A stretch of DNA of 64,000 bases from Escherichia phage nepoznato: sequence record NC_052658.1; one strand, 5' to 3'. The notes beneath the pieces are model-generated. The model saw only the letters and a list, made by a program, of their open reading frames with translations, made no database searches and had not been told where the DNA came from. Shown here in pieces: positions 3,553-64,000 of this stretch (the stretch's first letter is position 1; each line of letters starts with the position of its first letter). The translations under genes and the position numbers were made by a program.

Positions 3553-4380
3553 TTATCTTTTACGGACACTATACGGTTGGTGAAATCCGCTGTTCATTCT
3601 ACTGTATCCTGTAGGAGCATTTGTTGTTGCAGGGATAGCTACTGCTTTGAAAGTATTCTCTTTTGACAGAGTATTGAAACAAGAAGCAGCAGCATCGGGA
3701 ATGTCATCTTTAATAGTGGCTGTAGATCTTTCACCATTGAAAGATTCCAATTCTTTATAAAAGTGGGTTAAAGTTTCCACATTAGGGAAAGAATCTTCAA
3801 CAATATAAACAAAACCGTTTTGACACGCACTACTAAAAGGCATAAAACGCTGAAGCTTTTTCTTGTTGCCTGGCATAGCATCTGGTTTAACAACAAAACC
3901 CTCTAGAATAAGTTTCTTTGCAGACTCTGTATATTCTATTGTCCCAGCACCAGATGGGTCTTTAGGAAGAACTACTGTAACTTCTGGTCCATCAATCTTA
4001 CATTGATTTAGAATCAGGTTATCCCTTTCCCCAGGTAATCTTCGAAACCTTCCGAAAATTTTACTTTTCTCATCCACAGCATCATAATCATAGTCACCAA
4101 AGATGTAGATATTACCATCTTGGTCTTTACCCATTTTGACAGATGTTGTATAGTCTGGATAACGATAAGTTTCTGTAGGAACTGAAACAGCTTTATCCCA
4201 TGCTCGCATTAGTTTAAGATTATTAGGAACATCTTTATAAGATATCTTATGCAACCATTCACGTTGGAAGAAAGACTCTTTCTGTATACGTGCAAACCAA
4301 CAGCCGTCCAAGAGTTGTGCTCTTTTGATTGCTGTTTGTGATTTAAGCTGTGCTAAATAATTAGGGTTAAGCCTAATCAA
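3553..4380 (-). CDS. terL: terminase large subunit, C-terminal nuclease segment
   Basis: 275 aa; track start is TTG with no RBS; reading frame stays open upstream to an in-frame TAG at 4423-4425; C-terminal ...IKDDIPDAAAS... resembles terminase nuclease-domain end; same strand as ATPase segment 5356-6597. Confidence 0.5.
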   Translation of the reverse strand: MIRLNPNYLAQLKSQTAIKRAQLLDGCWFARIQKESFFQREWLHKISYKDVPNNLKLMRAWDKAVSVPTETYRYPDYTTSVKMGKDQDGNIYIFGDYDYDAVDEKSKIFGRFRRLPGERDNLILNQCKIDGPEVTVVLPKDPSGAGTIEYTESAKKLILEGFVVKPDAMPGNKKKLQRFMPFSSACQNGFVYIVEDSFPNVETLTHFYKELESFNGERSTATIKDDIPDAAASCFNTLSKENTFKAVAIPATTNAPTGYSRMNSGFHQPYSVRKR

Positions 4381-4559
4381 TTCTGGGTTATCAAATCTTT
4401 TTATTCTGGAGTAGTCGCAACTCTACTCCACGTTCTCTTATGAACTGCTGCACATCACTGTGCAGAATAGACTATATCATCATCTCCTAAGAGATGCTTT
4501 GCTTTTCGAGCAGCATTTGCTTCTGCCCTACTCCCTTTCGGGATAGTCGTTGAACTACA

Positions 4560-5240
4560 TCACCAATTGTAGTTATTAGATAAGTACGTATAGGTTTTCC
4601 TATCTTTAATACTCTTAACTACATTAAAACTTACACCGTATTTTTTAGCTATTTTATTTATTGATAGAATATTTTCTTGCAGCTTTTCACAAATCCCTAA
4701 GACTTTATCTTCACTTATTCTGTTGGAAGAGGGTATTTTTCTAAAGTTAAAGTCTTGTGAAATGTCTTTATATGTTCTGCCAGCTTTTATATCACTAACA
4801 ACAGATTGTGCCACATTATACATCTGACAGATATCTTTGTTACGTGATCCTTGCTCTAACAGTTTGCAAATTTCCACAGCAACAGTGTCTGGAATAGGTC
4901 TGTAGTCATTTATGACTTCTGTTCGTCTTAACCCTGTGGACATAGCATGAAGAGTATTCTCTTGTTCTGTTGTCCACTCAAGATTGTCTGCACAATTATT
5001 AAGTTTGTTGCCATCTTTGTGATTAACAAAAGGCTTATTTTCAGGGTTAGGCACAAATGCTTTTGCTATCAACCTGTGCTGTAATTCTTCTATCCTACTA
5101 CCATTTTCACAAATGGTTACTCCCTTGTAATCTCCAAGCATCTTATTTTCGCTTAGGAATTTTTGGGTGTATAAACTAAAAATACGACCATCGTATGTGG
5201 CGCAATAATGCGGGTATCCGATGAAACCTAAGTTTTTCAT
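4560..5240 (-). CDS. HNH homing endonuclease
   Basis: 226 aa; His-Me finger motif ...NHKDGNKLNNCADNLEWTTEQENTLHA; own promoter and RBS; inserted between the two terminase segments. Confidence 0.7.
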   Translation of the reverse strand: MKNLGFIGYPHYCATYDGRIFSLYTQKFLSENKMLGDYKGVTICENGSRIEELQHRLIAKAFVPNPENKPFVNHKDGNKLNNCADNLEWTTEQENTLHAMSTGLRRTEVINDYRPIPDTVAVEICKLLEQGSRNKDICQMYNVAQSVVSDIKAGRTYKDISQDFNFRKIPSSNRISEDKVLGICEKLQENILSINKIAKKYGVSFNVVKSIKDRKTYTYLSNNYNW

Positions 5241-5272
5241 TTTACTCTCCTACTAATATTTTTGGAGAAGTG

Positions 5273-5301
5273 ATTATAGCTGCTGATTATCTATTTGTCA
5301 A
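5273..5301 (-). promoter_or_regulatory. strong sigma70-like promoter (TTGACA, 17 bp, TATAAT) for the HNH gene
   Basis: Minus-strand reading GTCTATTGACAAATAGATAATCAGCAGCTATAAT, followed by RBS and the ATG at 5240. Confidence 0.6.
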
Positions 5302-5355
5302 TAGACTTCCCAGCAATTAACAAAGTTATTCGATGTGCATCGCTGCACAAAGCCA

Positions 5356-6597
5356 CTATTGATTAATGGTTCCACCAATGAACACAAATGTTTGTGGTTC
5401 AATAACCACTGTTTCACCTGTATTAGGGTTTTCCATGAAACAGTTTTCTGGATATTTTTCTTTCAGTTCTTCAGGTGTGTCAGCAAAAACAGGTTCATCG
5501 TTAACAATGATGAAATATTTTTGTTTACCACACATATCTTCTCTAGGATAACCGCCCTCATCGAGATAAGGTAATACCCAATTCAAAACCCAACTATCTG
5601 CATCGGGGTTACATGTGCACAACATGAAGCTTGTTTCTGATTCTGAACGCATACGTCCCAGAAGATAGAGCATTTCATATTGCGTGAAGTGGGTTAACTC
5701 GTCAAAACCTACCATTGAATACTGTGTACCCTGATGGTTTGTTTCTGCTGTTACGTTATCATTTTCCAAATGATCGAATTTGAGGGTTCCACCACCAGTG
5801 GCTTCAAAAATGATATCCATTGTACTTTCTTTTACGTGTGGTTGTAAAGGAAGATACAAACGTTTTGCTTCTGTAAACAGACCACCTGGTTTACGGTGAG
5901 CAGTGGTGTTCTTACGGAAAAGTATTCCACCAAACAAAGGATCTTTGTAGGCGTATTTTAAAGCTTTCAGCAATAGCAGACGAGACTTGCCGCTATTCCC
6001 AGTAACGAAGCAGTGATCGCCACGTCTAAAGACAATATAGCTGCTTGGAGTCTCAAAACAATATTTCTTATCATCTGTTGAAATAACCTCGTGTATTTTT
6101 AAGTAAGTGCTCTTTTTACCAGGTATGTTAAAAGGAACACGTTTACCGAATGGATTTTCTACATAACCTTGAAGTGGTTTTCCTATTTGCTGTAATGCAA
6201 TAAGATCTCCTACAAGAATCTCGAAATGTTTCTTTGATTTCTTTTTCTTATAGAATACAAAACGGTGTTCCATACTAAGTTCTTGGAACAATCCTACACC
6301 ATTTGTTATTCTGTATAGGTTATCTCCATTTAAATCGTATTCTACAAAATAAGGTGTTACCAATTCTAAACGCTTATTCTTAGGGTTGTATTGGTAAATA
6401 TCCTCTCCCGAATATTCACTAATCTGTCTCCAACCATCTTTTGTAAGATATTCCGTTTCAGCAGAAACACATCCAGCGGCACCACCATAAATCATAACTT
6501 CTGGCATTAAATCCATTGCAAGAGTCTGTTTACCTGGTTGAGCCTTTACTTCAATATCTACTCCAGCTAAACTACCTGCTGCCTTTTTCTTTGCCAC
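5356..6597 (-). CDS. terL: terminase large subunit, N-terminal ATPase segment, with putative mini-intein
   Basis: 413 aa; Walker B-like YSMVGFDELTHF; residues 43-201 start with Cys (CVSAETEYLTKDGWRQISE, Hint block A-like) and end with Asn followed by Ser; removing them joins ...YGGAAG to SGKSRLL..., giving a canonical Walker A GAAGSGKS. Confidence 0.55.
   Translation of the reverse strand: MAKKKAAGSLAGVDIEVKAQPGKQTLAMDLMPEVMIYGGAAGCVSAETEYLTKDGWRQISEYSGEDIYQYNPKNKRLELVTPYFVEYDLNGDNLYRITNGVGLFQELSMEHRFVFYKKKKSKKHFEILVGDLIALQQIGKPLQGYVENPFGKRVPFNIPGKKSTYLKIHEVISTDDKKYCFETPSSYIVFRRGDHCFVTGNSGKSRLLLLKALKYAYKDPLFGGILFRKNTTAHRKPGGLFTEAKRLYLPLQPHVKESTMDIIFEATGGGTLKFDHLENDNVTAETNHQGTQYSMVGFDELTHFTQYEMLYLLGRMRSESETSFMLCTCNPDADSWVLNWVLPYLDEGGYPREDMCGKQKYFIIVNDEPVFADTPEELKEKYPENCFMENPNTGETVVIEPQTFVFIGGTINQ
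5995..6471 (-). other. putative mini-intein (Hint domain, about 159 aa) inside terminase Walker A
   Basis: Codon 6469-6471 is TGT (Cys1); codon 5995-5997 is AAT (terminal Asn); next codon is AGC (Ser+1). Penultimate residue is Gly, not His, so splicing competence is uncertain. Confidence 0.45.
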
Positions 6598-8331: not shown

Positions 8332-8394
8332 TTTAAAAGAATATCTCACGTCTGATACAGACTAACCTTTTGTCTGACGCATGAAATATTTAAT

Positions 8395-8471
8395 TGGTCG
8401 GAATTGCAGGATTCGAACCTGCGACCCTACGCTCCCAAAGCGTATGCTCTACCAAACTGAGCTAAATTCCG
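8395..8471 (-). tRNA. tRNA-Pro (anticodon UGG), CCA encoded
   Basis: Acceptor CGGAATT/AATTCCG, D-arm GCTC-AGTTTGGTA-GAGC, anticodon stem TACGC/GCGTA with loop TTTGGGA, T-arm GCAGG-TTCGAAT-CCTGC. The 5' end overlaps the stop of CDS 8462-8980. Confidence 0.8.
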
Positions 8472-8980
8472 TTATTAATGTGCTTCCATGTGGTGTAAGT
8501 AACAATATCCTGTATTGTCCATCTTGAAACTTCATACTTTTTTGCCAATGCTCGTTGACTAATTTTAGTAGTCTCATACTCCATACGGATTTGAATAACA
8601 TCTTTTTCTGATAACTTGGCTTTATTATTTTCTTCCCCTTTAGGATTAACAAGTAATCCTGTGCTAACAGCGTGTGTCATATTCTCATGCTGTGTCGCCC
8701 ACTCCACGTTATCCTTGTGGTTGTTAAGCTTGTTACCATCTTTGTGATTAACAGATTTCTTGTTTTCAGGATTAGGATGAAAAGCTTTACAAACCAAACG
8801 GTGAATCTTAAAACAAATACTTTTTCCTTTTCTACCGCCAATTTTTGTTGCGTGGGTATAGTAACCTGTTTTAGATATGGTTTGGGATAGTATCTTATTA
8901 GTTCTCTTACTTCTTAATCTTCCGAGGTCACTTATTTGGAAGTAATTCTCATAACCAGCTACATCACGCCATTCTTCCAT
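8462..8980 (-). CDS. HNH homing endonuclease embedded in tRNA cluster
   Basis: 172 aa; motif ...VNHKDGNKLNNHKDNVEWATQHENMTHA, closely similar to the HNH protein at 4560-5240. Confidence 0.7.
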   Translation of the reverse strand: MEEWRDVAGYENYFQISDLGRLRSKRTNKILSQTISKTGYYTHATKIGGRKGKSICFKIHRLVCKAFHPNPENKKSVNHKDGNKLNNHKDNVEWATQHENMTHAVSTGLLVNPKGEENNKAKLSEKDVIQIRMEYETTKISQRALAKKYEVSRWTIQDIVTYTTWKHINNGI

Positions 8981-9106
8981 TTATACCTACTTATACCTGA
9001 ATAAAACAATAAATCATTTAATGAAGGGCAACCAGAAGAAGTGTGAGAGAAGGAGAAAACCATGAGTAAAAGAGAAAGTTTTCTGGCAACCCTTTATTAA
9101 ATAATT

Positions 9107-10546: not shown

Positions 10547-10743
10547 AAATGTGGTAACAGAGACGCTGACGATTGTAGAGAACCGCTACATTCTCTAAGA
10601 CCAAGCCCAACTTTCAGCGTAAAAGTTCTTGAGCCGAGACTGTTCCTTTTCCTCTTTGGTAGCTAACCTCTGAAGAAGTAGTCTCTAACACTACCGCAGT
10701 GCAAGCCCCCTCTTAACAAAAGTCAACGACCCTGTTACCACAC
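10547..10743 (-). ncRNA. candidate structured leader RNA of the tRNA operon
   Basis: About 197 nt with no ORF between promoter 10756-10784 and the first tRNA; bounded by a perfect 10 bp inverted repeat GTGGTAACAG (10547-10556) / CTGTTACCAC (10734-10743). Confidence 0.3.
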
Positions 10744-10755
10744 TTGATGAACGTA

Positions 10756-11583: not shown

Positions 11584-12004
11584 AGTATTATTTATAATAA
11601 TTTATTATTTTATTTTTAATTGATAGAAGTTGATCTGTACGTACCAGTTCTGATACACTGTACCTGTTTGTTAGATCTAATAATTATTTATTATTAATAT
11701 TTAATAATTATTAATCTAGTACGGAGTACAGTACTTGAGTACAGAGTACTACATCAACAACCTAAAACCTTAACTCGCTGCGCTCGTTAATAGATTTCTA
11801 GGGTAGCATACTTCGAACACAAAAGTCAAGAGTTTTATTAAAATTATTTTCTGTGTGCAAAAAACCTTGCTTAAACAGGTAGCAATAGTATAGCCTATAA
11901 CATAAGCTTCATAAGAGGCTCGTAGAGCAAGTTCACTTACTAGGTAAGGTGATTTATCATCTTATATATAAAAAGTGCGTCAGAGACGCGTTTAGGAGGC
12001 TAGA

Positions 12005-34955: not shown

Positions 34956-35647
34956 TGACGACAATTATTGCAACCAAGAATAAGATTTTGAGTGATGGTA
35001 AGGTAACTTTTGGCGGACGTGTAGATTCTATTAATTTCAAAAAGGTCCGAAAAATTGGAGATTACCTTGTAGGTGGTGCTGGTCGTCTGACCTCCGTGCT
35101 TTCTTTCTTTCAATGGTTTGAACAAAACCTACAGTGCGAAGCAGCACGTGATGCTGTCCCTGGTTTGATGATTCATTCTGATCCAGACAAAGAAGATGAA
35201 GAGTTTATTGCGCTTGTTGTTCATCCAGACGGACGTATTTTCCTGCACGAAGGTAACAATCCAACACGTGCATATCCGATTGATGAAGAATATTATGCAG
35301 TAGGAAGTGGGTCAGACTTTGCTTTAGCTGCTCTTGATGCAGGGGCAACACCAGAACAAGCTATGGAAGTAGCTAAAAAGCGAGATGCTTTTTCTGGTGG
35401 TGAAACATTTATTGAAGAACAAGACGAGATTATTGAATTAACAGACGATGATTTAGAAAACTTCTCCAAAGAAGAATTAATCAATCTTTTGAAATTCGGT
35501 AATCCCTACGGTGAAGAAGAACCTCGTAACGTGGCAGGTAACGAGGCGGATACTGAAGAAAAATCTGTTGCAGAAAACAACTTGACTTCTAAATCTGAAA
35601 ATATTAATCTCGTAAATGTGGCGGATTTCGAAGGAACCGCTATTTAA
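34955..35647 (+). CDS. HslV-like Ntn-hydrolase peptidase (putative)
   Basis: 230 aa; MTTIIATKNKILSDGKVTFGG...KKVRKIGDYLVGGAG resembles E. coli HslV MTTIVSVRRNG...KKVRRL...AGFAGG, with Thr directly after the initiator Met; acidic C-terminal extension. Confidence 0.5.
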   Translation: MTTIIATKNKILSDGKVTFGGRVDSINFKKVRKIGDYLVGGAGRLTSVLSFFQWFEQNLQCEAARDAVPGLMIHSDPDKEDEEFIALVVHPDGRIFLHEGNNPTRAYPIDEEYYAVGSGSDFALAALDAGATPEQAMEVAKKRDAFSGGETFIEEQDEIIELTDDDLENFSKEELINLLKFGNPYGEEEPRNVAGNEADTEEKSVAENNLTSKSENINLVNVADFEGTAI

Positions 35648-36632: not shown

Positions 36633-36869
36633 ATGGGTAAACTAATTATGACAGTGGCTATTGATTTTGATGAAGTAGATGAAAGCCTCAACCTTTCACT
36701 TTCTACTGATGTAGAGGGTGAAATGGATAATATTGAAGCAGCTACTGCTCTTTTCTTCAAAAAAGCTATTGAAGTTTATGCCGAACATGCTGCAAACCAA
36801 GCAGTAGACTATGGCGGCATCGTGCGAGCTTTGGTTCACTCTACCGAGGACAATGACTGGGAAGACTAA
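36633..36869 (+). CDS. hypothetical acidic protein
   Basis: 78 aa ORF. Confidence 0.35.
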   Translation: MGKLIMTVAIDFDEVDESLNLSLSTDVEGEMDNIEAATALFFKKAIEVYAEHAANQAVDYGGIVRALVHSTEDNDWED

Positions 36870-37072
36870 TGGCTTACAATTATTACTGCATTTATGCACA
36901 TGAAAAGAAAAAAGGTGACACTGGGACTAACGTTTATGCGGAGTCTGAATCTCATGCAAAAGAGATTGGTGCTATCCTTCTATCACGCTGGACTGGAAAT
37001 AATTACAGTGCAGAAGATATGTTTGCAGAAGTAGATTCTGGTATCCAAGAAGACAACATAACAACTACGTGA
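36869..37072 (+). CDS. hypothetical protein
   Basis: 67 aa ORF. Confidence 0.35.
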   Translation: MAYNYYCIYAHEKKKGDTGTNVYAESESHAKEIGAILLSRWTGNNYSAEDMFAEVDSGIQEDNITTT

Positions 37073-37080
37073 TATACTTA

Positions 37081-37106
37081 TACTCCCTTCTCGGAGGGAG
37101 TATTTT
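37081..37106 (+). terminator. intrinsic terminator
   Basis: Perfect 8 bp stem TACTCCCT/AGGGAGTA followed by TTTTAAGG. Confidence 0.55.
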
Positions 37107-37117
37107 AAGGAGGGATT

Positions 37118-37312
37118 ATGCAGAGCGGAGAAGAACTTTTAGAGAAACAATTCTCAACGCGTCAACAAGCTTTAAGTTATATGGTTTTTCTAAGCAATCT
37201 TGATGTGAATGAGATACTTTTACGGCGCGAAGGTAATTTCTGGAGCGTTAAATATCATGCAACAAGGTCTGTAATCTACCTGGAAGAGGCGGAATTCTCT
37301 TTGGTAGAATGA
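37118..37312 (+). CDS. hypothetical protein
   Basis: 64 aa ORF. Confidence 0.35.
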   Translation: MQSGEELLEKQFSTRQQALSYMVFLSNLDVNEILLRREGNFWSVKYHATRSVIYLEEAEFSLVE

Positions 37313-37899
37313 TCCGAGGAGTAGTTATGCGTTCAACTTTCACTGGCAAAATAAACGCTGGTTTGATTTTTACCGCAGTAAGCATTCTTAGCAAAAAGTT
37401 TAAAGTTGTTAACTTACCTGTGTGTGTCGATTTCGATCATGTTTTTGATCCTTCGAACCCCACTCGTTGCATAGTAAGGAGTAATGTTGAAAACCCAACA
37501 GAAAATCTTTTTTATGTAACAAAACCATCTCAAAGCATACTTAACCAGGTTGAGGCGAAATTGATACCTAACGGTAAATATTACTCCTTTTTACCTTGTA
37601 AGTCGGTTGAAGTAGAGAATAGCAGTACTTTCGCTAACAACTTGTCTGTATTCGTTTTCTTTGTTTCGCACGAAGATGAAACAGATGAAATGGTAGCAAC
37701 AGTGAGATCACTTTATGACTCTTTAGGGGTTGTTTATAGACAACAAGTGTGCGAAAATAATAAAGCCTGTGTAGATTTCATTATCAACGGTATTTGTGTT
37801 TGTAGAGTAGAATCTTTTTGGCTGCACGATACATATGTGACTGTAGCAGAGGTTATATCTGAACCAAAATTTAGTCATGCTGTTTCGTTAATAATTTGA
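37309..37899 (+). CDS. hypothetical protein
   Basis: 196 aa ORF. Confidence 0.4.
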   Translation: MIRGVVMRSTFTGKINAGLIFTAVSILSKKFKVVNLPVCVDFDHVFDPSNPTRCIVRSNVENPTENLFYVTKPSQSILNQVEAKLIPNGKYYSFLPCKSVEVENSSTFANNLSVFVFFVSHEDETDEMVATVRSLYDSLGVVYRQQVCENNKACVDFIINGICVCRVESFWLHDTYVTVAEVISEPKFSHAVSLII

Positions 37900-52897: not shown

Positions 52898-53170
52898 TCA
52901 CCCCCAAGAAATATTTATATATCTTACAATGTTTGCACTGTCTAAAGCCATGTTTGCACCACACCCACGCTCGCGCCAATAACTAACAATACCTTCACAG
53001 ATACTCTCTTGTATCTTCTTATCACTTGGCATTTCTAGTATAAGACTTGGGTTGTGGATGTTTATGTTATAATATCCTTCCTCTGCGGCTTGAGCTACCA
53101 ATTTACTTACTTTTTCAAAGTACGGGGAATTAGTGGCATCTGCCATTGCTTTTAAGGTTTGTCTATCCAT
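52898..53170 (-). CDS. hypothetical protein
   Basis: 90 aa ORF. Confidence 0.35.
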   Translation of the reverse strand: MDRQTLKAMADATNSPYFEKVSKLVAQAAEEGYYNINIHNPSLILEMPSDKKIQESICEGIVSYWRERGCGANMALDSANIVRYINISWG

Positions 53171-53943: not shown

Positions 53944-54621
53944 CTATTTAATGTTCAATCTAGCACACAAGCGAGAAACAGTTTTAGCATCCCACTTACC
54001 ACCACGTGCTGTTGCGATTTTCTTACTATTGAATTTTTCAGCAATAGTTTTGTAAGGTGTATTTAAATCTCTAAGGATTTCTAAGCGTTCACGGAATGTC
54101 TCTGCAAAAGCATCTGCTTTAACAGAATTGTATTCCATTTTTCCTTTTCTACGTGCAGCGGCAGTTTTAGGATTAGCACTGCCTAATAAAACACCTTTGC
54201 TTTTTGCTACAGCAAGACCCTTTTTAATACGATCAGCAATACCTCTGACTTCTTGTTCAGCCAAAACAGACAGAAGCTGTATAACCATTTTATCTGCGTC
54301 TGGCATGATGGCTATCTTAACATCGATCATTTCTAGAAGAGTTGCTACGGAGGCGTTGTTACGACCCAAGCGGTCAACTTTAGCTACCAATAAAGTTGCT
54401 CCGGTAGCTTTACACATTTCAACCGCTTTAACCAGTTCCTTACGTTGCTTCCAATCGCCCTTACCAGAATAGTATTCAGAAAATTGACCAATAACTTCAG
54501 CATCAGGCACAGAGTCTAAGAAGTAACGGATATCGTTCTCTTGGCTCTCCATACCATATTGTGCCTCACCTTTTTTCTGTTTAGAAAGACGACTGTAAAC
54601 AACAAACTTTTTCATAACCAC
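53944..54621 (-). CDS. serine recombinase (resolvase/invertase family)
   Basis: 225 aa; catalytic-domain VVYSRLSKQ (YxRxS), VDRLGRN, LAEQEVRGIADRIKKG; C-terminal HTH-like segment; own promoter at 54645-54673. Confidence 0.65.
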   Translation of the reverse strand: MVMKKFVVYSRLSKQKKGEAQYGMESQENDIRYFLDSVPDAEVIGQFSEYYSGKGDWKQRKELVKAVEMCKATGATLLVAKVDRLGRNNASVATLLEMIDVKIAIMPDADKMVIQLLSVLAEQEVRGIADRIKKGLAVAKSKGVLLGSANPKTAAARRKGKMEYNSVKADAFAETFRERLEILRDLNTPYKTIAEKFNSKKIATARGGKWDAKTVSRLCARLNIK

Positions 54622-54644
54622 TCCTAAACCATTGCTGTATTCTC

Positions 54645-54673
54645 ACTTTACAAAACGAATAAACACTTGTCAA
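54645..54673 (-). promoter_or_regulatory. sigma70-like promoter (TTGACA, 17 bp, TAAAGT) for the serine recombinase gene
   Basis: Minus-strand reading CCTTGACAAGTGTTTATTCGTTTTGTAAAGT, then RBS TAGGAG and the ATG at 54621. Confidence 0.5.
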
Positions 54674-54685
54674 GGTATTTATTAT

Positions 54686-54898
54686 TTACAGCCATTCTAC
54701 TTTTAAGCAGTATTCTTCGACATGTTGTTTACGCTTGTTTTTGTCTATGTAAGTGTATTCAACAAATGTCCCAAGATAATCCTTGTCCACATTGTGTTGG
54801 CTATTAATTGGACATTTAGTACGACAAACCCGTTGCCACTGACGAAGAATTACGGCTTTGTTTTTAGGATCAAAGGGATGAGGGTAATGTGCCTTCAT
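54686..54898 (-). CDS. hypothetical protein
   Basis: 70 aa ORF. Confidence 0.35.
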   Translation of the reverse strand: MKAHYPHPFDPKNKAVILRQWQRVCRTKCPINSQHNVDKDYLGTFVEYTYIDKNKRKQHVEEYCLKVEWL

Positions 54899-55222
54899 TC
54901 ACGCCTCCTGTTTTAGTCGAAAAATATTTTGAATAACGAGAGATGTATAGTTATCACTTAGTCCCATAAGTTCTACTTCCAAGTTTCGAATATCTTCCAC
55001 CGTAGGAGGATATGTTGGTAAAAATGCTTGAGCATTACCAGATCCAACCTCATTGCTGTAAGCAGTTGTAAAATTGTAAGATACAAAACATGAAACACCT
55101 TTTTGTCGGTACCCGATTAATCGACGAATACACCAGATAAGAGCCAAACCTATGAGAACACCTCCTAAACCAGCTAACAAGAAGGATAAGTTCATAATAG
55201 CTTCGTTAACAACTGCTTGCAT
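54899..55222 (-). CDS. hypothetical membrane protein
   Basis: 107 aa; N-terminal transmembrane segment (LLAGLGGVLIGLALIWCI). Confidence 0.35.
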   Translation of the reverse strand: MQAVVNEAIMNLSFLLAGLGGVLIGLALIWCIRRLIGYRQKGVSCFVSYNFTTAYSNEVGSGNAQAFLPTYPPTVEDIRNLEVELMGLSDNYTSLVIQNIFRLKQEA

Positions 55223-63803: not shown

Positions 63804-63998
63804 TTATTTCGGGACACCCTGTTTCATGGCAATCATGGCAAGAATATCTAATAGAATCAATATCATATGGCAAAAATCATGGCGTATACGTAAGAAGTGC
63901 TTAACGCGAATTTTCGGGCCGTCAGGTCCACGCAGCGACAATTCCCAAATATCATGCGAATGAGAATAATTATCATTCGTATTCAATGACTTATGCAA
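63804..63998 (-). CDS. hypothetical protein
   Basis: 64 aa ORF at window edge inside a repeat-containing non-coding stretch; weak support. Confidence 0.25.
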   Translation of the reverse strand: MHKSLNTNDNYSHSHDIWELSLRGPDGPKIRVKHFLRIRHDFCHMILILLDILAMIAMKQGVPK

Positions 63999-64000
63999 GG

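Follow-up and report, generated by a model that had tools for sequence, protein, structure and literature searches.

A conserved small serine recombinase gene in lytic Phapecoctaviruses and the search for its target

Background

The described systems that come closest to the gene studied here are the resolvases of Tn3 and gamma-delta together with Sin, the invertases Gin (phage Mu), Cin (phage P1) and Hin/Pin, and the large serine integrases such as Bxb1, phiC31, A118 and TP901-1. In gamma-delta resolvase, the active-site cluster is formed by Y6, R8, S10, D67, R68 and R71.

We analysed a stretch of 64,000 nucleotides from Escherichia phage nepoznato (NC_052658.1), which we call the window. It belongs to Phapecoctavirus (phAPEC8-like phages of the Stephanstirmvirinae, about 150 kb, lytic on E. 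coli). Like Tn3/gamma-delta resolvase and Sin, the recombinase encoded there has the same catalytic domain with the same active-site residues, followed by the long helix E and then by a small DNA-binding domain. Unlike them (the identity is about 20-25%), it has a C-terminal domain of the PF07508 type and not HTH_7, its gene has no multi-subsite res upstream, and it lies neither in a transposon nor on a plasmid. With Gin, Cin and Hin/Pin it has in common that it is a phage-borne small serine recombinase of similar size, and the PHROG family that it matches best is named for these enzymes. On the other hand, the similarity to them is weak, there is no HTH_7, the gene is not beside tail-fibre genes, the phage is lytic, and neither inverted crossover sites nor an invertible segment or isoforms were found in about 60 genomes. 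With the large serine integrases it shares the catalytic domain and the helix-turn-helix that opens the recombinase domain, including the motif I-A-x-x-L/F-N ... T-x-R-G-x-x-W. However, these integrases are more than 400 aa long; the phage protein has 223 aa, that is, under half their length, it is without the rest of the recombinase domain, the zinc-ribbon and the coiled coil, and no integrated copies of the phage were found in 5,426 complete E. coli genomes.

The gene was already known and is of a known type, and its annotation as a recombinase predates our analysis: several GenBank records call it serine recombinase, resolvase, DNA invertase or 'gin'. Many public records label the same gene (53944-54615) 'methionine ABC transporter ATP-binding protein', and its upstream neighbour of 70 aa (54686-54898, Pfam DUF7202) is labelled 'putative ABC transporter ATP-binding protein'; neither name is supported. 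A literature search gave no paper in which a studied serine recombinase is linked to Phapecoctavirus, phAPEC8 or ICP1. One phage description asserts, without data, a 'resolvase keeping concatemers as single genomes' (PMC10282059).

Results

Position of the gene in the phage genome

The minus-strand ORF at 53944-54621 was confirmed in the window (ORF list). The GTG at 54621 was rejected as the start, as it overlaps the AGGAG at 54625-54621. The true start is the ATG at 54615, giving a protein of 223 aa; this agrees with GenBank, where AVZ45439.1 (labelled 'serine recombinase') shares the start.

53944-54615, minus strand: small serine recombinase coding sequence, 223 aa plus stop (ORF, PF00239, PHROG 125, GenBank start)
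54621-54625, minus strand: predicted ribosome-binding site AGGAG, 5 nt 5' of the ATG (sequence reading; invariant in six relatives)

The window is collinear with positions 58626-122138 of its closest relative, MH051333.1, and with Phapecoctavirus genomes in general; the first-pass annotation, made from the letters alone, had correctly placed the gene in a small-gene block of a virulent phage. As a proxy for the whole genome we used the window plus the remainder of MH051333.1. For phage Schickermooser, a direct terminal repeat of 328 bp has been reported as the physical genome ends (PMC6563267), and in the WPEC2 record the first and last 328 bp are identical. This repeat maps to 63903-64230 in window coordinates (the window ends inside it, with 63903-64000), which puts the recombinase gene about 9.3 kb in from the left end of the packaged genome. 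The gene is transcribed away from that end.

Some other features of the genome were seen on the way. Relative to MH051333.1, the window has two insertions (4397-5365 and 8337-9002), each with an HNH_3 homing-endonuclease gene (4560-5240 and 8462-8980; the two genes have a stretch of 83 nt in common). The first of these insertions divides the terminase large-subunit gene into the ORFs 3553-4380 and 5356-6597, and therefore may represent an intron or a split gene. Beyond the window, at 124.7-134.5 kb of MH051333.1 (24700-34500 of L004, our section of that record), about 14 units consisting of a sigma-70-like promoter and the hairpin GGCGGCAATGGTGCCGCC stand before small genes. These units are reminiscent of the promoter/stem-loop cassettes of T4-type phages, and the block that holds them is the most variable part of the genome among the relatives.

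Catalytic domain and fold

The Pfam Resolvase domain PF00239 matches aa 5-142 of the protein (E=5e-18, 65.9 bits, cut-off 23.3) and all 58 of the 58 aligned family members. The best phage-family match is PHROG 125, 'DNA invertase' (E=1e-32), with PHROG 95, 'integrase', as a weaker, secondary match. Among the solved structures, Tn3/gamma-delta resolvase gives the best sequence matches (E about 1e-6) and the Gin structure 4m6f matches weakly (E=0.006). The reading as a resolvase/invertase-type serine recombinase is thus upheld by PF00239, PHROG 125 and the Tn3/gamma-delta matches.

The motifs quoted for that reading, YSRLSKQ, VDRLGRN and LAEQE, are present and carry Y7/R9/S11, D81/R82/R85 and E120, respectively. 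VDRLGRN aligns with KLDRLGRD of Tn3 and gamma-delta resolvase, in an alignment that covers the query residues 47-148 only. Three alignments, with 21, 61 and 58 homologues that reach down to about 30% identity, show no variation at Y7, R9, S11, D81, R82 and R85, and E120 is invariant or nearly so in 58-61 homologues. A loss of the catalytic serine context on proper alignment, which had been considered at the outset, is not seen: S11 is invariant in the 58-61 homologues, and since the serine is retained, the identification of the protein stands.

In the AlphaFold model (58 sequences, mean pLDDT 87.5), alpha/beta strands and helices at 2-101 are followed by the long helix E (109-139) and four C-terminal helices. 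The best Foldseek matches are the catalytic domains of Sin, gamma-delta, Bxb1 and TP901-1 (E=1e-6 to 1e-5).

54190-54615, minus strand: catalytic domain and long helix E, aa 1-142, with the nucleophile Ser11 and R9, D81, R82 and R85 (Pfam, invariant residues, AlphaFold, Foldseek)
53959-54171, minus strand: C-terminal predicted DNA-binding domain of four helices, PF07508 'Recombinase' type, aa 149-219 (AlphaFold, PF07508)

It is very probable that the protein is an active serine recombinase. By its sequence, the enzyme can firmly be called intact, catalytically competent and under selection.

The C-terminal domain

A helix-turn-helix had been proposed for the C-terminus. It is present, but it is not the classical HTH_7 of resolvases, which in a Pfam profile search was matched by none of the 58 family members; rather, it corresponds to the start of PF07508, below the cut-off of that profile. 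Positions 18-48 of the 102 positions of PF07508 are matched at E=6e-4 with 20.4 bits, just under the cut-off of 21.1 (the scores for the recombinase lie at 18-20 bits), and 25/58 family members match this profile. The model places the helices at 149-172, 175-183, 188-197 and 210-219, with a pLDDT of about 90. The domain resembles the opening helix-turn-helix of PF07508 of the large serine recombinases, unlike HTH_7.

Promoter and upstream gap

The gene was also thought to have a promoter of its own, and a predicted one is indeed found in the gap of 64 bp before it.

54645-54673, minus strand: sigma-70-like promoter TTGACA-17-TAAAGT in the 64-bp upstream gap (consensus scan, 10/12 matches)

Both hexamers are kept in phage phiWec179 (where the gene is 74% identical) despite diverged flanks. 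Promoter-like matches as such are not enriched in the region (8 found vs 10.5 expected). Promoter-like sites of a comparable kind are also found ahead of the homologues of Justusliebigvirus Paula, Shewanella phage 1/40 and Vibrio phage ICP1. The recombinase would probably be expressed early, from its own host-type promoter.

The gap holds one dyad, AATAAATAC-N8-GTGTTTATT, which overlaps the -35 hexamer. We rejected it as an operator or crossover site, because it has no second copy in the genome and its right arm is unconserved in phiWec179 and Tr1. A multi-subsite res directly upstream was not found; the 64 bp are too short for a classical res of three subsites.

Search for crossover sites

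Next, we asked whether the phage genome contains sites on which the enzyme could act. A second copy of the 160 nt upstream of the gene was found nowhere in the whole-genome proxy, and no terminal repeats or duplications flank the gene. Inverted pairs in the window are at noise level, with none beyond chance and no paired site near the gene, which bears out the earlier impression that there are no target repeats within a few kb. The suggestion that went with it, that the paired target lies elsewhere in the genome, fared less well: the whole-genome proxy holds no convincing crossover-like pair, and about 90% of the genome is collinear among the relatives.

Several single candidates were considered and discarded. 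The inverted pair 52915-52952 / 55051-55088, which flanks the gene (38 nt, 74% complementary), is within coding regions and no better than two dozen other pairs at random distances. The pair 10547-10581 / 10711-10745, taken as an invertible promoter, turned out to be the closing stem of a structured RNA before tRNA genes. In the Shewanella phage 1/40, a 24-nt inverted pair is found just 5' of the homologue, with its left arm in an insertion specific to 1/40; the region in phage 1/4 is collinear.

The structured RNA is a feature in its own right. This RNA-like element of about 200 nt (10547-10745, minus strand) has a closing stem of 35 bp and lies between a promoter-like TTGACA (at about 10783) and the first tRNA genes. 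Its minimum free energy is -75.9 kcal/mol (z = -4.9 vs shuffles), and it matches no Rfam family at gathering score.

Apart from GC-rich terminators or hairpins, a genome-wide scan for repeated dyad-symmetric sites gave a single family, AATGAGAATNATTATCATT, which is AT-rich. Its palindromes are found within the terminal repeat of 328 bp and, in a non-coding stretch about 13 kb away, as an array with a period of 29 bp.

Window 63959-63977: AATGAGAATNATTATCATT Fur-box-like palindrome in the terminal repeat
L004 (part of MH051333.1) 22097, 22277, 23045 and 35084-35190: AATGAGAATNATTATCATT Fur-box-like palindromes
L020 53, 249, 1160, 1218 and 11877-11990: further AATGAGAATNATTATCATT Fur-box-like palindromes

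The motif is found at the same places in Justusliebigvirus BME3, and in our comparison with the consensus GATAATGATAATCATTATC it closely resembles the Fur box of E. coli. At least 120 unrelated viral contigs contain an exact copy of its 18-mer core, and no recombinase homologue (0) was seen in the flanks that we examined; therefore we do not regard AATGAGAATNATTATCATT as the site of the recombinase. As lox-like sites the palindromes were rejected for the same reason, and also because the block between them never inverts. Possible roles for them are as Fur sites of the host, as an origin, or as packaging signals.

Collinearity and integrated copies

If the enzyme inverted or deleted a segment of the phage genome, different isoforms could be visible among the sequenced relatives. 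We ran six megablast searches, with the whole window and with MH051333.1 1-50000 and 121001-146000, which together make up about 90% of the genome. A single collinear place on one strand was matched in every one of about 60 Phapecoctavirus records, with the entire tail-fibre module included. Thus, about 60 assemblies, compared over about 90% of the genome, show no isoforms of the kind that inversion or deletion would produce; these are independent consensus assemblies, in which minority isoforms within stocks are invisible. Inversion of a segment of the phage's own genome, which the first-pass annotation had named as one of the usual activities of such enzymes, is weakened accordingly at the level of consensus assemblies, where there are neither isoforms nor paired sites.

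The exceptions to collinearity are record ends, the repeated promoter units, and the four records WPEC1, WPEC2, WPEC4 and WPEC6, which have 10-19 'places' per query. We did not take these four for recombination products, since their assemblies are scrambled and contain repeated copies of junction fragments of about 150 bp. In PV691511.1 (WPEC2), and likewise in WPEC1, 4 and 6, large blocks are misordered or misoriented, and there are many copies of seven fragments of about 150 bp. The records look like concatenated nodes of an assembly graph rather than biology.

Furthermore, the 2.5 kb around the gene gave no blastn match in 5,426 complete E. coli genomes and their plasmids, so that neither integration nor carriage on a plasmid is indicated.

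Conservation and gene neighbourhood

About 60 public genomes encode a protein that is 100% identical to this one. Compared with three relatives, the gene has 7, 19 and 21 nucleotide differences (19 vs nieznany and 21 vs WPEC2), all of them synonymous, and this pattern in the aligned genes indicates strong purifying selection. Homologues are found in the following phages.

74% identity: phiWec179, PsgM04F
67% identity: Citrobacter Tr1
57% identity: Justusliebigvirus (phi92 gp053)
51-55% identity: Klebsiella phages
35-38% identity: Shewanella 1/4 and 1/40, Vibrio 424E50-1
30% identity: some ICP1 isolates

The related phages that bear homologues at 30-75% identity have genomes of 130-155 kb, and many further homologues are on metagenomic contigs of 130-157 kb. 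The hosts of the gene-bearing phages belong to Escherichia, Klebsiella, Serratia, Shewanella and Vibrio. In summary, the gene is near-universal in the Stephanstirmvirinae and in related lytic myoviruses of 130-155 kb.

In Justusliebigvirus, the Klebsiella phages, the Shewanella phages and two metagenomic lineages, the homologue resides in a DNA-metabolism module, with genes for PhoH, HslV, a DNA methylase, a Ser/Thr phosphatase, a DprA-like protein and a DNA ligase around it, and is usually preceded by a conserved gene of 67 aa. In the window, this module is at about 36-40 kb and includes the 67-aa gene (36869-37060), and the slot of the recombinase is empty.

37060-37327: empty ancestral recombinase slot between the 67-aa gene (36869-37060) and a 190-aa gene (37327-37890), occupied in Justusliebigvirus and the Klebsiella phages

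The empty slot suggests that the gene was relocated once, in the Phapecoctavirus/Tr1 lineage, into the small-gene block at the left end. In ICP1 the gene is accessory and lies within a variable region that is not numbered in the reference annotation. We also considered a conserved small partner gene, as the 67-aa upstream neighbour and a downstream neighbour of about 65 aa are kept in several lineages; neither accompanies the gene in Phapecoctavirus, and the idea was dropped. In none of the virulent relatives examined is the gene beside tail genes.

Relatives outside the virulent phages

Full-length homologues (35-40% identity, 95-99% coverage, C-terminal domain included) are found on small plasmids of 5.8-6.4 kb, for example Marinovum pMaD11, Klebsiella aerogenes pIIIF7SW-P1_2 and the 6.4-kb plasmids of Synechococcus elongatus, under the name 'recombinase family protein'. 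We examined two of these, pMaD11 and pIIIF7SW-P1_2 (5.8 kb each), and in both about 650 bp of non-coding DNA lie upstream of the homologue; in pMaD11 this region separates it from the ParA gene. The phage gene differs from these plasmid homologues (about 650 bp upstream, in one case with a palindrome) in that it has a gap of 64 bp and no conserved dyad. The plasmid layout is the one that would be expected for a multimer-resolution system, a function that we assume by analogy; to our knowledge, none of these plasmid homologues has been studied.

The palindrome is on the Klebsiella plasmid (L022 4323-4356). It has 34 bp with a 2-bp centre, TATCATTTGTTTGCCG-AA-CGGCAAATTTATGATA, and lies 34-67 bp before the start of the homologue, with TGATTTTTA half-sites also nearby. 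It is a candidate res site for this subfamily of recombinases.

Two other distant homologues are at prophage ends beside tail or baseplate genes, which is the classical position of an invertase. One of these prophages has the 43%-identical homologue P0071; there, two dyad-symmetric sites, TCTGAAATA-N6-TATTTCAGA (24-29 bp), flank 861 bp with four small ORFs (L013 21-49 and 911-939, about 5 kb from the recombinase gene). This segment is a candidate invertible segment, with the classical layout of an invertase system. Given the resolution-like layout on plasmids and the invertase-like layout in prophages, the family seems to include both kinds of enzyme.

Discussion

As a whole, the observations are best explained, if tentatively, by a functional small serine recombinase with a resolution-type role on phage DNA. 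Since the homologues reside in a DNA-metabolism neighbourhood in most lineages and have relatives on plasmids, resolution on replicating phage DNA appears to be the most likely job of the enzyme, and a resolution- or deletion-type reaction on the phage's own replicating DNA is possible, although by no means probable, by analogy with those relatives. By the mechanism of the family, dimers would bind a site of about 30 bp via the C-terminal helix-turn-helix, and two occupied sites would pair within a tetramer. Ser11 would then cut the four strands with a 2-nt stagger, becoming covalently joined to the DNA, and half of the tetramer would rotate by 180 degrees before the ends are rejoined. The substrate would be circular or multimeric phage intermediates, as is thought for resolvase-like genes on small plasmids.

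There are several points against resolution. No crossover site was identified in the phage, and the dyad of the 64-bp gap is unconserved. Where a lytic phage packages its DNA from concatemers, we know of no need for multimer resolution. The plasmid homologues are themselves uncharacterised, and two distant homologues sit in the position of a prophage invertase. Finally, the changed position of the gene within the subfamily and its accessory status in ICP1 agree with a dispensable gene no less than with a core one.

Maybe the substrate is not phage DNA at all, and the enzyme acts on host DNA or on a competing mobile element (invertible switches, cryptic prophages or satellites) in the course of host takeover or counter-defence. 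We consider this unlikely. It would agree with the lack of a target in the phage genome and with the location of the gene in what is probably an early block with a host-type promoter. Host Pin recombinases have recently been reported to block phage adsorption by inverting cryptic-prophage DNA (PMC12529663), so that such switches do matter to phages. On the other hand, there is no positive evidence for this substrate, the kinship with Pin, Gin and Hin is only remote, and the conservation of the gene in phages of very different hosts speaks against any one specific host locus. There is a very small chance that the recombinase is an early weapon which rearranges host switches, cryptic prophages or satellites and in this way disarms defences or reprograms the cell; if so, the absence of a target in the phage genome would be explained.

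It is improbable that the gene is a selfish or dispensable cassette with its own promoter, which persists and occasionally moves and has little role in the life cycle. It does occupy a different slot in Phapecoctavirus than in Justusliebigvirus and the Klebsiella and Shewanella phages, and the ICP1 copy is in a variable region. However, a protein that is identical in about 60 genomes, with only synonymous differences in the DNA, and near-universal in the subfamily is not what a dispensable cassette would lead one to expect; moreover, a single relocation was seen, and there are no flanking terminal repeats or duplications.

An invertase of the Gin/Cin/Hin type, flipping a phage segment (tail fibres or a promoter) between distant inverted sites, is suggested by the best PHROG match, 'DNA invertase', by the GenBank labels DNA invertase or 'gin', and by the distant prophage homologues that lie by tail or baseplate genes, one of them with a dyad pair flanking 861 bp. 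Against it, no inverted segment is seen in about 60 assemblies (about 90% of the genome with all tail-fibre genes), no inverted pair rises above chance in the window or the whole-genome proxy, the Gin match is weak (E=0.006), HTH_7 is lacking, and in the virulent relatives examined the gene is not adjacent to tail genes. Since neither a target nor isoforms were found, a tail-fibre switch of the Gin/Cin type is unlikely; judging from these comparisons of genomes, the recombinase is probably not an invertase of tail fibres or of any large segment in this genus, and we hold such an invertase role to be very unlikely. An integrase or plasmid-prophage maintenance function in a hidden temperate or carrier state, for which one could cite the secondary matches to PHROG 95 'integrase' and PF07508 and the flagging of recombinases in therapy-safety screens, is extremely unlikely for a protein of 223 aa without zinc-ribbon or coiled coil, with no match in 5,426 E. 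coli genomes and with plasmid matches that are distant homologues in other bacteria only.

Conclusions

Candidates for phage therapy commonly come from among the Phapecoctaviruses and Justusliebigviruses, and the presence of a recombinase gene is routinely taken as a warning of lysogeny. That the gene encodes a short recombinase which is not an integrase, and that no integrated copies are found in thousands of E. coli genomes, helps to read this flag. A short enzyme with an unusual DNA-binding domain may also be of interest for genome engineering once its site is known.

We know of no described role for a site-specific recombinase that is kept unchanged across a strictly lytic phage subfamily. 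What such a subfamily does with this conserved enzyme is a genuine and testable, if modest, question. Its target, once found, would reveal a new step in how lytic phages process their DNA, or else a new way of interfering with the host.
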